A DNA stretch of 39,491 bases from a virus: the UHGV virus genome UHGV-0344222. One strand, given 5' to 3'. Positions 1-39,491 of this stretch are shown piece after piece; positions within the stretch are counted from its first letter, which is position 1, and each line of letters opens with the position of its first letter. The translations under genes and the position numbers were made by a program. The notes under the pieces are model-generated. The model ran no database searches. It had not been told where the DNA came from and saw only the letters and a program-made list of their open reading frames with translations.

Positions 1-148
1 AACTTCAAGTTTCGTGGAATTGACCAAGTCTATAACGCACTGGCTCCGGCGCTGGTTAATCACGGACTTCTTATCCTCCCCCGCATCACTGAGCGCACCG
101 TAACCGAGCGCACGACCCCAAAAGGCACTGTCCTGTTCTAGGTGGTGG
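1..148. repeat. Inverted duplicate of an internal segment of the ERF-like gene; reverse complement of about 324-473 with one mismatch
   Basis: Plus strand 1-143 translates to NFKFRGIDQVYNALAPALVNHGLLILPRITERTVTERTTPKGTVLF then TAG, the same peptide encoded on the minus strand at 324-473; the mismatch turns a Tyr codon into TAG. Repeat is cut by the window edge. Confidence 0.85.
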
Positions 149-566
149 TTACATCAATCGCTGTTTCTTCTGTCGGGATGCAGAACGCCTGAAACGCTGC
201 GTATTTGTAGGCAATCGACATGGCCTTGTTCGTTGCCTTGTCGCCGCTATCCATCGCTTCGCCGTATGTCACAACCGTGTGAACGCTGCCGTCCTTTGTG
301 CTCACAAAGTCGAACTCTGCTTTAACCACCACATAGAACAGGACAGTGCCTTTTGGGGTCGTGCGCTCGGTTACGGTGCGCTCAGTGATGCGGGGGAGGA
401 TAAGAAGTCCGTGATTAACCAGCGCCGGAGCCAGTGCGTTATAGACTTGGTCAATTCCACGAAACTTGAAGTTTTGCTGTGTGTTCGTCCTGTCCTTGCT
501 TATGCCGGTAGTCGCCATTTCCTTGGCTACTGCGCTGATTGCCTGATAAACAAGCTTATCTGTCAT
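138..566 (-). CDS. ERF-family single-strand annealing (recombination) protein, putative
   Basis: Motifs resemble P22 Erf as I recall it (NFKFRGID...; ...AYKYAAFQAFCI). ATG at 566 overlaps the upstream stop (ATGA); the longest ORF extends to a GTG at 593. Confidence 0.55.
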   Translation of the reverse strand: MTDKLVYQAISAVAKEMATTGISKDRTNTQQNFKFRGIDQVYNALAPALVNHGLLILPRITERTVTERTTPKGTVLFYVVVKAEFDFVSTKDGSVHTVVTYGEAMDSGDKATNKAMSIAYKYAAFQAFCIPTEETAIDVTTT

Positions 567-706
567 GAGTAATTCCCCGCGAACTCTTGCCACGTGATTG
601 GCTGATTCATTCGTTCAGCCGCTAGGTTAATTTGCTGCTCTACCTCTTCTTCAATTTCAGGAGAAATGAGAGCGATGAAATCGTCGTCTTCTAATTCATG
701 CAGCAT
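563..706 (-). CDS. Small strongly acidic hypothetical protein (47 aa from internal ATG; longest ORF 563-817)
   Basis: ORF track 563..817; plausible start MLHELEDDD...; stop overlaps the ERF-like start. No strong SD seen. Confidence 0.3.
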   Translation of the reverse strand: MLHELEDDDFIALISPEIEEEVEQQINLAAERMNQPITWQEFAGNYS

Positions 707-2617: not shown

Positions 2618-2941
2618 CTAGGTAAGAGGAATCGATTTTCCCTTAATTTTCTGGCGTCCACTGCATGTTATGCCGCGTTCGCCAGGCTTGCTGTACCATG
2701 TGCGCTGATTCTTGCGCTCAATACGTTGCAGGTTGCTTTCAATCTGTTTGTGGTATTCAGCCAGCACTGTAAGGTCTATCGGATTTAGTGCGCTTTCTAC
2801 TCGTGATTTCGGTTTGCGATTCAGCGAGAGAATAGGGCGGTTAACTGGTTTTGCGCTTACCCCAACCAACAGGGGATTTGCTGCTTTCCATTGAGCCTGT
2901 TTCTCTGCGCGACGTTCGCGGCGGCGTGTTTGTGCATCCAT
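2618..2941 (-). CDS. N: Antitermination protein N
   Basis: From the ATG at 2941 the protein reads MDAQTRRRERRAEKQAQWKAANPLLVGVSAKPVNRPILS..., matching lambda N (107 aa); the ORF track extends further upstream. Confidence 0.92.
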   Translation of the reverse strand: MDAQTRRRERRAEKQAQWKAANPLLVGVSAKPVNRPILSLNRKPKSRVESALNPIDLTVLAEYHKQIESNLQRIERKNQRTWYSKPGERGITCSGRQKIKGKSIPLT

Positions 2942-3051
2942 CTGGATTCTCCTGCCAGTTAGCTTTGAGTAACGCGCCGTGATGCTTATCTCCACGGTTG
3001 CTGTCTTGCAGCTGCATTTCGCGCTACTCAAAGCCTTCTGCTTTGAATGCT

Positions 3052-3375: not shown

Positions 3376-4137
3376 TTAGGAATCAAGGTCAGGTAGCATG
3401 ATTTTCTCAATCAACGTCAATGCCCTTTGGTCTCGTTCAGCAAAATATTTAGGAGCGTACTGAGGCAGCCACACTTCGTTGAAGTGTTGTTTGAAATCTG
3501 CAAGATATTCGTTTGGGTATAGACGTACCGGGAATGTCCGGCCATCTGGGTACTCATGGTTATATGTTGGGAATGTCTTCGGCTCAACCCCCCGGTTGTC
3601 ACGGAGCCATTGCGAGAAAACCCTACCCTCTGAAATATCAGGGACCATTTTTTCTGGCAGCGTATATCCGGCCTGTTCAAGTGGCGCAACCAAGTTAAAC
3701 GTCAGTTCATTAAGCATAGAAAAGTGCGTATGAGGAACTCTGCCTCGGTTTGTCATATACCGCTTAAGGTGGATAGGGAGTTCGGCAGGCGCTCTTTCAC
3801 CTGACATCCACTCACGCACCCATCTCGATACTTGCACTGCAAATTTTGGAGATAGCCACTGAGCTAAATTAATTGCGATGTCTGGATGAACCCAAGTCCC
3901 TTGATTCTCTGCTCTTCCGCCTTTAAATGATTGAATTAACTCCGATATGGGAATCCCCATATCGCGTGATAATTCATCAAAAAAATCTTGTGTTGTTTTT
4001 AGTCGTGTATAGTCAGCAAGTAGCTTCCCCGCAGACTTGCACATCGCGGTGGCATTGATGTATCCGTCTTTGGTGCGAAGATGGATGACTTCTCCATCAA
4101 CTTCTCTAGCGATTAATGCAAGTTGAAACTGTGTCAT
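3376..4137 (-). CDS. KilA-N domain protein at the rexAB-equivalent locus (BstA-like abortive-infection candidate)
   Basis: 253 aa; N-terminal KilA-N-type motifs (DGYINAT..., GTWVHPDIAINLAQWLSPKFAVQVSRWV); starts 31 bp after the cI stop, same strand, ends at the t-imm-like terminator. Confidence 0.75.
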   Translation of the reverse strand: MTQFQLALIAREVDGEVIHLRTKDGYINATAMCKSAGKLLADYTRLKTTQDFFDELSRDMGIPISELIQSFKGGRAENQGTWVHPDIAINLAQWLSPKFAVQVSRWVREWMSGERAPAELPIHLKRYMTNRGRVPHTHFSMLNELTFNLVAPLEQAGYTLPEKMVPDISEGRVFSQWLRDNRGVEPKTFPTYNHEYPDGRTFPVRLYPNEYLADFKQHFNEVWLPQYAPKYFAERDQRALTLIEKIMLPDLDS

Positions 4138-4168
4138 AAATCATCCTATTACGTGAAAAATAAAACAA

Positions 4169-4885
<717 letters not shown>

Positions 4886-5627: not shown

Positions 5628-6527
5628 ATGACAAATACAGCAAAAATACTCAACTTCTGCAGAGGTAACTTTGCCGGACAGGAGCGTAATGTGGCAGATC
5701 TCGATGATGGTTACGCCAGACTATCAAATATGCTGCTTGAGGCTTATTCGGGCGCAGATCTGACCAAGCGACAGTTTAAAGTGCTGCTTGCCATTCTGCG
5801 TAAAACCTATGGGTGGAATAAACCAATGGACAGAATCACCGATTCTCAACTTAGCGAGATTACAAAGTTACCCGTCAAACGGTGCAATGAAGCCAAGTTA
5901 GAACTCGTCAGAATGAATATTATCAAGCAGCAAGGCGGCATGTTTGGACCAAATAAAAACATCTCAGAATGGTGTATCCCTCAAAACGAGGGAAAATCCC
6001 CTAAAACGAGGGATAAAACATCCCTCAAATTGGGGGATTGCTATCCCTCAAAACAGGGGGACACAAAAGACACTATTACAAAAGAAAAAAGAAAAGATTA
6101 TTCGTCAGAGAATTCTGGCGAATCCTCTGACCAGCCAGAAAACGATCTTTCTGTGGTGAAACCGGATGCTGCAATTCAGAGCGGCAGCAAGTGGGGGACA
6201 GCAGAAGACCTGACCGCCGCAGAGTGGATGTTTGACATGGTGAAGACCATCGCGCCATCAGCCAGAAAACCGAATTTTGCTGGGTGGGCTAACGATATCC
6301 GCCTGATGCGTGAACGTGACGGACGTAACCACCGCGACATGTGCGTGCTGTTCCGCTGGGCATGCCAGGACAACTTCTGGTCCGGTAACGTGCTGAGCCC
6401 GGCCAAACTCCGCGACAAGTGGACCCAGCTCGAAATCAACCGTAACAAGCAACAGGCAGTCGTGACAGCCAGCAAACCAAAACTCGACCTGACAAACACA
6501 GACTGGATTTACGGGGTGGATCTATGA
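5628..6527 (+). CDS. O: Replication initiator O
   Basis: 299 aa, matches lambda O as I recall it; contains the iterons. Confidence 0.97.
   Translation: MTNTAKILNFCRGNFAGQERNVADLDDGYARLSNMLLEAYSGADLTKRQFKVLLAILRKTYGWNKPMDRITDSQLSEITKLPVKRCNEAKLELVRMNIIKQQGGMFGPNKNISEWCIPQNEGKSPKTRDKTSLKLGDCYPSKQGDTKDTITKEKRKDYSSENSGESSDQPENDLSVVKPDAAIQSGSKWGTAEDLTAAEWMFDMVKTIAPSARKPNFAGWANDIRLMRERDGRNHRDMCVLFRWACQDNFWSGNVLSPAKLRDKWTQLEINRNKQQAVVTASKPKLDLTNTDWIYGVDL
5975..6110. other. Origin of replication (ori-lambda type): four iterons plus an AT-rich stretch inside O
   Basis: Repeated TCCCTCAAAACGAGGGA-like units at about 5975-6062, then AAAAGAAAAAAGAAAAG. Confidence 0.85.
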
Positions 6528-10430: not shown

Positions 10431-11513
10431 TTAGAACTGGTAAACCATACCTACAGCAACGATATCATCGGTAGCAACGCCAGATGCTTTCGTGAAATCG
10501 CTCTTATCAATCAGGTTGATTTTGTAGTCAACAAAAGTGGACATATTTTTGTTGAAGTAATAGGTTGCACCTACATCAACATATTCAACCAGGTCCTGAT
10601 CACCCCAAACACCCAAGTCTTTTCCTTTAGAATGCAGGTAAGCAACGGATGGACGCAGGCCGAAGTCGAACTGATATTGTGCAACAGCTTCGAAGTTTTG
10701 TGCTTTGTTGGCAATATGGTTATTACCAAAAACAGTCATGTTCTGGGTTTCAGAATAGGTGGTGGCCAGATAGATGTTGTTCGCATCATATTTCAGACCA
10801 GCTGCCCATACTTCAGCATTTTGACCAGAAGCATTCAGACCGTTGTTACCGTAGATAACCTGATTATTAGTGCGATCAGATTTAGCATAGGTTGCACCCA
10901 CGCCGAATCCTTCATACTCATAAGTAGTTGAGAAACCGAAACCATCGCCATTAGCTTCAGTTACTTCATTTCGGTCATTTTTGCCCTGATACTGAGCTGC
11001 AAAGTTCAGGCCATCAACCAGACCAAAGAAGTCGTTGTTACGATAAGTTGCAACACCTGTGGTGCGACCAGTCATGAATACATCTGTTTGGGTCCAGGTA
11101 TCGCCACCGAATTCTGGCAGAACGTCAGTCCACGCACCGATGTCGTATGCTACACCGTAGTTACGGCCGTAATCGATTGAGCCGTAGTCACCGAATTTCA
11201 GGCCTGCAAATGCAAGACGGGTTTTGTCTTTGGAGGAACCTTGAGATTCAGCGCGGTTGCCTTTGAATTCATATTCCCACTGACCGAAACCAGTCAGTTG
11301 ATCGTTGATTTGGGTTTCACCTTTGAAGCCAAGACGGGCATAAGTAGTATCACCATCATCTGCATCATTAGAGGAGAAGTAGTGCTTAGCATTAACTTTC
11401 CCGTACAGATCCAGCTTGTTACTGTCTTTATTATAAATTTCAGCTGCCTGAGCAGACATCGCCATCAGTACTGATGCAGCTACAGCAGAAATTGCCACTG
11501 TTAATTTTTTCAT
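10431..11513 (-). CDS. nmpC: Outer-membrane porin (OmpC/NmpC family), apparently intact
   Basis: 360 aa with signal peptide [23 protein letters not shown] and C-terminal ...MVYQF. Confidence 0.92.
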
Positions 11514-37900: not shown

Positions 37901-38286
37901 AAACCACATCGTCGTTTGATTACGGCACTAAATCCACGAATAACACTGGTGCGCATACCCATAGTGTTAGCGGTACGGCTGCTTCAGCCGGTGCACATAC
38001 CCATTCGATGACATTTGTTTCAGGTGGTTCCAGTGGTGCTCCGGGAAGTGGAGCATCTGATTATTCTAAATACAGTGTTAACACTTCTTCTGCAGGCGCT
38101 CATACGCACTCTGTATCGGGTACTGCTGCAAGCGCAGGTGCACACGCGCATACTGTCGGTATTGGTGCTCATACGCACTCCGTTGCGATTGGCTCACATG
38201 GACACACCATCACCGTTAACGCTGCTGGTAACGCGGAAAACACCGTCAAAAATATCGCATTTAACTATATTGTGAGGCTTGCATAA
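34933..38286 (+). CDS. stf: Side tail fiber protein Stf (1117 aa) with long Ala/Ser-rich repeat region and His-rich C-terminal repeats
   Basis: N-terminus [26 protein letters not shown]... lambda Stf-like; repeats SAxxAxxSASSA... and [17 protein letters not shown] (twice). Confidence 0.92.
35300..36300 (+). repeat. Intragenic low-complexity tandem repeats (Ala/Ser/Thr-rich) within stf
   Basis: Reiterated GCx-AGC/TCx codon blocks; explains the long spurious ORFs on other frames and the antisense strand. Confidence 0.7.
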
Positions 38287-38861
38287 TGGCATTCAGAATG
38301 AGTGAACAAGCACGGACCATAAAAATTTATAATCTGCTGGCCGGAACTAATGAATTTATTGGTAAAGGTGACGCATATATTCCGCCTCATACAGGTCTGC
38401 CAGCAAACAGTACCGATATTGCACCGCCAGATATTCCGGCTGGCTTTGTGGCTGTTTTCAACAGTGATGAGGCATCGTGGCATCTCGTTGAAGATCATCG
38501 GGGAAAAACCGTCTATGACGTGGCTTCCGGCGACGCGTTATTTATTTCTGAACTTGGCTCGTTACCGGAAAATGTCACCTGGTTATCGCCGGAAGGGGAA
38601 TATCAGAAGTGGAACGGCACAGCCTGGGTGAAGGATACGGAAGCAGAAAAACTGTTCCGGATCCGGGAGGCGGAAGAAACAAAAAACAGCCTGATGCAGG
38701 TAGCCAGTGAGCATATAGCGCCACTTCAGGATGCTGTAGATCTGGAAATTGCAACGGAGGAAGAAATCTCGTTGCTGGAAGCATGGAAAAAGTATCGGGT
38801 ATTGCTGAACCGTGTTGATACGTCAACTTCACAGGATATTGAATGGCCAGCACTGCCGTAG
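38286..38861 (+). CDS. tfa: Tail fiber assembly protein Tfa
   Basis: 191 aa [48 protein letters not shown]... Confidence 0.93.
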
Positions 38862-38958: not shown

Positions 38959-39216
38959 TTATATGTCAGGTGTCTGAAGTTTTGCTTTGGCTCTTAAAAT
39001 GGTTTGCCGCGAGGTTTTGAATTCCCGGGCAATGGCACTTATACTTACACCTGACTTAATTCGTTCGAATACCACCTGTTTCTGTTCTTCATTTAACACA
39101 GGTGGTCGACCAAAACGTTTCCCTGCGCCGCGGGCTCTTACTATCCCGGAATGAGTGCGTTCAAGTAAAAGGTCTCGTTCAAATTCAGCGACTGCTGAAA
39201 TTACTTGCATCATCAT
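38959..39216 (-). pseudogene. 3' fragment of a serine DNA-invertase gene (Pin/Gin/Hin family, C-terminal HTH domain only)
   Basis: [47 protein letters not shown]...; lacks the N-terminal catalytic domain; 5' end replaced by an inverted repeat. Confidence 0.75.
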
Positions 39217-39244
39217 TTTTCCTGTTGGACTGGTCAGGTCAATG
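39145..39244. repeat. Left arm of a 100-bp inverted repeat; right arm 39391-39491 is truncated by the window edge
   Basis: 39145-39244 is the exact reverse complement of 39391-39490 by manual comparison; both arms encode the invertase segment [26 protein letters not shown]. Confidence 0.85.
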
Positions 39245-39491
39245 CACCGGTTGCTTGCTCGCCTGAAATGTGGTGATCAATTGATTGTGACAAAACTGGA
39301 TCGCCTTGGTTGTAATGCAATGGATATCAGGAAAACAGTGGAACAACTGACCGAAACAGGTATCAGAGTGCATTGCTTAGCATTGGGGGGCATTGACCTG
39401 ACCAGTCCAACAGGAAAAATGATGATGCAAGTAATTTCAGCAGTCGCTGAATTTGAACGAGACCTTTTACTTGAACGCACTCATTCCGGGA
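39242..39491 (+). CDS. Partial serine DNA-invertase gene: central catalytic-domain region, 5'-truncated, 3' end beyond the window
   Basis: [83 protein letters not shown]; resolvase-type motif without the catalytic Ser region. Confidence 0.6.

Follow-up and report, generated by a model that had tools for sequence, protein, structure and literature searches.

Terminal fold-backs at both ends of a lambda-like phage sequence are very probably technical chimeras

Introduction

Chimeras that join nearby segments in inverted orientation are a documented class of artefact (PMC1855051, PMC8458033, PMC12870357, PMC13141652). In MDA, inverted joins of nearby segments make up 85% of the chimeras, and 93.5% of these nearby inverted chimeras have at least 2 bp of microhomology (Lasken and Stockwell 2007; PMC1855051). 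Hairpinned single-stranded DNA that is filled in at end repair gives rise to inverted-repeat artefact chimeric fragments, and what defines chimeras of the FFPE type is a short overlap of reverse-complementary sequence (PMC8458033). Long-read libraries commonly contain fold-back and inverted-repeat reads (PMC12870357, PMC13141652).

The window, which is the whole 39,491-nt stretch of DNA analysed here, most likely corresponds to a complete assembled contig from a lambda-like prophage, and each of its two ends is an inverted copy of sequence lying close by. As in library and amplification chimeras, opposite-strand segments of one locus are joined 144-171 nt apart, the inverted duplication has a single-copy spacer, and the junctions occur in a single data set only. 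The junctions differ from those of MDA and hairpinned single-stranded DNA chimeras by the absence of the usual short complementary overlap. They are also unlike long-read fold-backs, which normally have almost no spacer and far longer arms, and unlike chimeras known from reads, being visible here after assembly only, at the contig tips.

Fold-back inversions and palindromes are also generated during replication by template switching; such events arise at short inverted repeats, and are rare and heritable. The window ends share with them the U-turn of a strand that copies the opposite strand and the asymmetric centre, but their breakpoints have no short inverted repeats and show no sign of inheritance or recurrence. 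The gene reached at the left end is a clear member of the P22 Erf family (PF04404), found with an Arf partner in the order cIII, DUF5444, Arf, Erf; unlike P22 Erf, it has 138 of 207 codons and owes its apparent C-terminus, VTTT and a stop, to the fold-back. At the right end a pin-type serine invertase gene adjoins tail-fibre and tail-fibre-assembly genes, as in the Pin/Gin/Cin/Hin systems, whereas the repeat found in the window is duplicated invertase coding sequence and not a crossover-site pair.

Genome context

The window is a lambda-like phage with 97% identity to phage mEp332 over 1657-25000. Its genes include those coding for a lambda-type cI, for a KilA-N protein, for SieB, Ral and Lom, and for tail-fibre assembly. 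Replication gene O (5628-6527), also of lambda type, is situated between the two fold-back ends. Upstream of erf is a recombination module of P22 type composed of Arf (563-706), a DUF5444 protein (696-887) and cIII (865-1017). No att site or integrase is seen at either window edge. The edges are within the erf and pin-type invertase genes and are not prophage boundaries, contrary to the original prediction, which had placed a possible real rearrangement at such boundaries.

Geometry of the two fold-backs

The repeat search finds two inverted pairs with arms above 100 nt in the window, one per edge: 1-156/318-473 at the left (98%) and 39144-39248/39387-39491 at the right (99%). Base-by-base comparison gives the following left-end features, listed with the two genes concerned:

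1-151, plus strand: left fold-back arm, an inverted copy of 323-473 that carries erf codons 32-81 on the wrong strand and is non-native at this place
141, plus strand: single substitution in the left arm, G where T is implied by arm 323-473 and by the nearest relative, L014
151-152: left novel junction, blunt, with 152 and 322 mismatched and no usable microhomology
152-322, minus strand: left single-copy spacer of 171 nt, native erf codons 82-138 in native orientation, collinear with relatives L002 and L014-L022
323-473, minus strand: left native partner arm, erf codons 32-81
138-566, minus strand: truncated erf ORF, made of 138 native codons (153-566) followed by VTTT and a TAG at 138-140 from the fold-back arm
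563-706, minus strand: Arf gene, 47 aa, PF17585 (Phage_Arf), native neighbour upstream of erf

Those of the right end are:

38959-39245, minus strand: native 3' part of the pin-type serine invertase gene, with the end of the Resolvase domain and HTH_7
39144-39245: right inner arm of 102 nt, from base-by-base comparison
39245-39246: right novel junction, at which alignments stop, placed by comparison with the pin gene of E. coli MB50
39246-39389, plus strand: right single-copy spacer of 144 nt, the native pin continuation, inverted relative to the rest of the window
39390-39491, plus strand: right terminal arm, an inverted copy of 39144-39245 that ends exactly at the window edge

Arm 1-151 is the reverse complement of 323-473 with a sole mismatch at 141: pairing is perfect between 1-140 and 334-473, resumes between 142-151 and 323-332, and is lost from 152. 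The right pair, 39144-39245 and 39390-39491, is a perfect reverse complement over 102 nt. The original prediction had described 1-148 as the reverse complement of about 324-473 with a single mismatch; the duplication and the mismatch stand, with these somewhat refined extents. It had also announced a mirror-image situation at the right edge, and this is what the right pair displays. Because the spacer in an order of arm, spacer, arm may be read either way round, the right end is the mirror image of the left one.

The outer arms run to the very edges, position 1 at the left and position 39491 at the right. Both junctions are sharp (151/152 and 39245/39246) and each lies within a gene, erf at the left and the pin-type invertase gene at the right. 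At both ends the strand that runs outward switches to its complement, at a point that lies 171 nt behind the tip on the left and 144 nt on the right. Microhomology amounts to 0 nt at the left junction and, after a terminal mismatch, to 2 nt at the right one. The spacers of 171 and 144 nt are non-palindromic. Exact inverted matches of 140 nt and 102 nt cannot have arisen by chance in 39.5 kb, and the terminal fold-back is thereby confirmed as a real observation.

Left end: a truncated erf gene

In the profile search the ORF at 138-566 belongs to the ERF family (PF04404, E = 8.7e-20, 71.7 bits for a cut-off of 25), with a match restricted to profile positions 1-121 of 153. A full-length ERF is absent from the window, which holds 138 native codons compared with about 207 aa in relatives. 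All 33 relatives checked have an ERF of 201-256 aa that runs past the junction point and measures 207 aa in the closest ones; those with a readable ORF (25/25) span the same 201-256 aa, with 207 aa in the closest 12. The Arf gene at 563-706 served as anchor to retrieve native contexts. In the 8 NCBI contexts with identical Arf, a 207-aa ERF comes next in every case, followed by an SSB gene that is sometimes preceded by an HNH gene, and an integrase is found further on in 5/8.

The departure of the window from its relatives is seen in both protein and DNA. The protein reads ...TAID-ADAEVHHIQPADAD... in 25/25 readable ORFs, with a continuation of the type ...AIDADAEVHH..., versus ...TAID-VTTT-stop in the window. 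With a slash marking the break, all relatives have ...GATTGATG/CTGATGCGG... where the window has ...GATTGATG/TAACCACC... at 151/152; the 8/8 NCBI contexts read ...GATTGATG/CTGATGCGGAGG... versus ...GATTGATG/TAACCACCACC... in the window, and native erf across codons 138 to 139 is ...GATTGATGCTGATGCGG.... Judging from these sequences, the native erf would have 207 codons with the SSB gene next to it. The gene had been taken as fully encoded at 138-566; it is not, because this ORF combines 138 native codons with VTTT and a stop, that is, its last four codons and its terminator, supplied by the inverted arm.

In each of the ten closest relatives listed by BLAST (L002 and nine from IMG/VR), the sequence is collinear with the window from 152 onwards, while 1-151 maps to the opposite strand within the same erf gene; native sequence thus ends at 152. 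The nearest relative of the window erf is the IMG/VR contig UViG_2548876925_000001 (L014), 99.3% identical over 153-566. The left arm is identical to it at 150/151 positions. Two further points of the original prediction hold: the window opens with a plus-strand fragment of the same ERF-like gene, whose translation is an erf segment (NFKFRGIDQV...GTVLF-stop-VVV), and the mismatch at 141 creates a TAG, the TAT of the native ...GTVLFYVVV having become TAG. This nonsense change is missing from the native arm and from L014, and is found in no relative.

The stretch 141-151 (GGTGGTGGTTA) was considered as native sequence providing a natural 10-nt inverted repeat as priming site, and was rejected as the relatives all continue with CTGATGCGG... 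past the junction. The string GGTTACATCAATCG... was looked for in the contig collections and found in none.

Right end: a pin-type invertase gene

The tail-fibre assembly gene (38286-38861) is followed at the right by the 3' part of the pin-type invertase gene on the minus strand. Profile searches assign Resolvase positions 103-144 of 145 and HTH_7 to the native pin part in the body of the window, and Resolvase positions 53-135 to the inverted spacer region. The catalytic N-terminus of the invertase (Resolvase positions 1-52) is missing from the window; natively, pin would continue to this N-terminal catalytic part.

Complete E. coli genomes are collinear with the window up to 39248. Once reverse-complemented, 39249-39491 matches the pin continuation in E. 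coli MB50 at 100% identity, and the last 246 nt of the window, likewise reverse-complemented, are the exact native continuation of E. coli pin, a gene that is itself collinear with the window as far as 39245. At the junction the MB50 gene reads ...CAACCGGT/TAAAACC, and native pin across the junction site is ...GTCAATGCCCCCCAATGC.... The trinucleotide ACC (39246-39248) belongs to native pin and lies upstream of the spacer. Since it adjoins the 39249-39491 stretch in MB50 pin, the true right junction is 39245/39246; for the same reason the reading of 39246-39248 as an extension of the arm by a mismatch plus CC was discarded.

The region of pin and tail-fibre assembly is present in several copies; the median number of places in an E. 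coli genome is 3. Six out of ten public contigs with the same 85-aa pin fragment end at window-equivalent 39216-39218, only 27-29 nt from the junction, so the right end is a usual assembly break point.

Public pin copies vary in the A-run before ATGATGATG, which is CAACAGGAAAAATG in the window versus CAACAGAAAAATG in loci L102 and L109, where the difference splits pin into two ORFs (111 + 85 aa). Loci L105 and L108 have substitutions near window-equivalent about 39218-39225, and in them pin is again divided (109/96 + 85 aa). This A-run site (about 39218-39225) is also the exact end of several draft contigs. In E. coli MB50 (L003, at 2933-3032) pin is annotated at just 157 aa (474 nt), and an IS4-like ISVsa5 transposase gene starts approximately 100 nt past the N-terminal end of pin.

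The junctions in other sequences

A 140-nt query centred on the right junction reaches at least 80% coverage in 0 of 5,426 complete E. coli genomes, while its halves match 2,763 of them. Queries centred on either junction attain at least 80% coverage in none of 50,697 phage records, whose alignments stop at window 152 and at 39245-39248. The exact strings of both junctions are absent from IMG/VR viral contigs. A 24-mer across the right junction has no match in metagenome or species-representative genome contigs, nor has a 24-mer across the left one in viral or metagenome contigs; the left junction was tested in the metagenome and species-representative collections with flanking patterns only. 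As a control, a terminal fold-back occurs in 0 of 111 other fetched loci, which include about 70 real contig ends (count from coordinate tables). Both junctions are private to this sequence among the collections searched.

Origin of the fold-backs

The fold-backs are very probably an artefact and not a genomic feature, produced by chimeric fold-back reads taken up at both contig ends. This explanation is favoured because the fold-backs end exactly at both window ends, because both junctions are private to this sequence, because each of them interrupts a conserved gene whose copies in all relatives are intact and collinear, because the extra copy has a nonsense substitution found in no relative, and because the right end sits where public draft assemblies often break. 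The marks of a fold-back chimera are present: an inverted copy of adjacent sequence at the sequence end, and native collinearity with the junction missing from independent sequences. The reverse-complementary overlap at the breakpoint (2 to about 21 nt) expected of MDA or hairpinned single-stranded DNA is lacking, and the absent microhomology and the arm lengths do not fit standard priming models. It also speaks against an artefact that a coverage-aware assembler should prefer the native path, had it been present.

The events could be as follows. At each tip the outward strand would come to a halt inside a gene, which at the left is erf (position 152) and at the right pin (native position equivalent to 39246). 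It would resume on the opposite strand, 171 nt back in erf and 144 nt back in pin, yielding an inverted copy of 151 or 102 nt, respectively. Resumption might occur by copying the opposite strand or by joining to it, with ligation, template switch and assembler behaviour as candidate steps. Presumably the junctions, whose read support would be low, come from a single chimeric library molecule or read, or from a few of them. The assembler, or a contig-extension step, may then have followed the chimeric path where the native path was irresolvable at the repeat. The T to G change at 141 is probably a read error in the copy and would fit a single low-coverage read.

The original prediction had left the choice between a real inversion or fold-back and a chimeric assembly or amplification artefact. 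Its artefact branch is the one retained; a real fold-back inverted duplication in the sequenced DNA, at both outward ends of a replicating or broken lambdoid prophage and perhaps in a subpopulation, is unlikely. Two routes to it can be imagined, a leading strand that jumps to the lagging-strand template approximately 150 nt behind the fork, or the hairpin capping of resected ends. The geometry is as a U-turn predicts at both ends, with similar spacers (171 and 144 nt), and the lambda-type replication gene O lies between these ends; the assembler followed the junction path rather than the native one, and a mutation that arose later could account for the single base by which the arms differ. Enterobacteria can, moreover, tolerate inverted repeats more than 100 nt apart. 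This reading nevertheless needs two independent rare events, each falling exactly at a contig end and each destroying a conserved gene; neither junction is present in any other record of the collections searched, the arm difference is a nonsense change as a read error would give, and assemblies habitually break where the right end lies. Still more doubtful is that both ends are real on a linear lambdoid molecule of about 39 kb, with each outward replication end having U-turned approximately 150 nt back. That molecule would be an inverted-duplication or hairpin-capped by-product of the replication of an induced prophage without excision. Real fold-backs would testify to U-turns made during replication at either end of a lambdoid replicon.

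The outer arms reach the window edges, which hides their true length, and the window might therefore have been excised from a longer palindromic or concatemeric sequence, for instance an inverted multimer from a chimeric long read or from amplified DNA. We regard this as very improbable: the cut would by coincidence have to fall just 151 and 102 nt into the repeat on the two sides, and no longer parent sequence was found, as neither of the exact strings 152-191 and 147-170 occurs in the genome, metagenome or viral contig collections, bar one relative. Look-ups for identical proteins likewise had no hit for the ERF ORFs of 142 aa and 151 aa, for the ORF adjoining erf (563-817) in its 84-aa reading or for the N gene ORF in its 137-aa reading. 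It would in any case be a technical chimera all the same. Hardly credible is a functional role as crossover sites of Pin, terminal inverted repeats of a mobile element or a hairpin telomere, even if the right end is in an invertase gene beside tail-fibre genes, a typical place for invertible segments. The arms are ordinary erf or pin coding sequence, copied with a shift in register, rather than short crossover sites at the flanks of a segment, the spacers are non-palindromic, the native loci are single-copy and, from gene content, no transposase or protelomerase gene is met between or beside the arms. An invertase-mediated invertible segment was rejected in particular since each arm consists of 102 nt from the pin coding region, repeated at an offset of 144 nt, which is no conservative in-register exchange. 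A hairpin telomere of N15 type was set aside in view of the non-palindromic spacers of 171 and 144 nt, versus a spacer-less palindrome, and of the lambda-type gene content. Terminal repeats of an IS or transposon were dismissed as the spacers encode erf codons 82-138 or Resolvase-domain residues of pin only. The fold-backs carry no implication for function.

Consequences for annotation

The technical chimeras bear mainly on data quality. Terminal fold-backs yield false inverted repeats, false stops and short genes that falsely appear complete, here a 142-aa "ERF" and two pin fragments, and may wrongly be taken for prophage boundaries, inversions or terminal repeats. Annotators should trim 1-151 and 39246-39491 and treat erf and pin as partial genes; trimming of 39246-39491 also loses 144 nt of true, inverted pin sequence.

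Additional observations

One joined end per junction is broken at T/TAA, at 322/323 in the window and in native pin at ...CCGGT/TAAAACC (39245/39246). The post-hoc chance of such breaks at both junctions is approximately 2e-4, or approximately 4e-3 if the 16 palindromic tetramers are allowed for. A restriction-like origin at TTAA was rejected: the ends keep different parts of the site and one cut-and-fill chemistry cannot explain both. In the left arm the perfect match covers exactly 140 nt, which is k-1 for k = 141, and stops at the lone mismatch; the right arm has 102 nt. A single k-mer explanation does not hold, as the left 140 nt fits k = 141 while the right 102 nt needs k = 103, and a pure unitig at k = 141 would also break at 333/334.

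The genome is mosaic, with the P22-type module of cIII, DUF5444, Arf and Erf (563-1017 and erf) in place of lambda exo/bet/gam. The left 1.6 kb has one 50-nt match only in 5,426 complete E. coli genomes. A porin gene on the minus strand (10431-11513, 360 aa; Porin_1, E = 3.6e-152) lies in a low-GC stretch (0.40), and related phages carry an 'OmpD' annotation at this position. The KilA-N domain protein of 253 aa (3376-4137, minus strand) adjoins the 237-aa cI repressor (4169-4882); lambda itself has rexAB at the position of the KilA-N gene. The cI and KilA-N genes (3376-4882) are flanked by an inverted pair, I3 (3124-3153/4927-4956), with TATCACCGC...GGTGATA motifs on either side that resemble the OL and OR operators of lambda.
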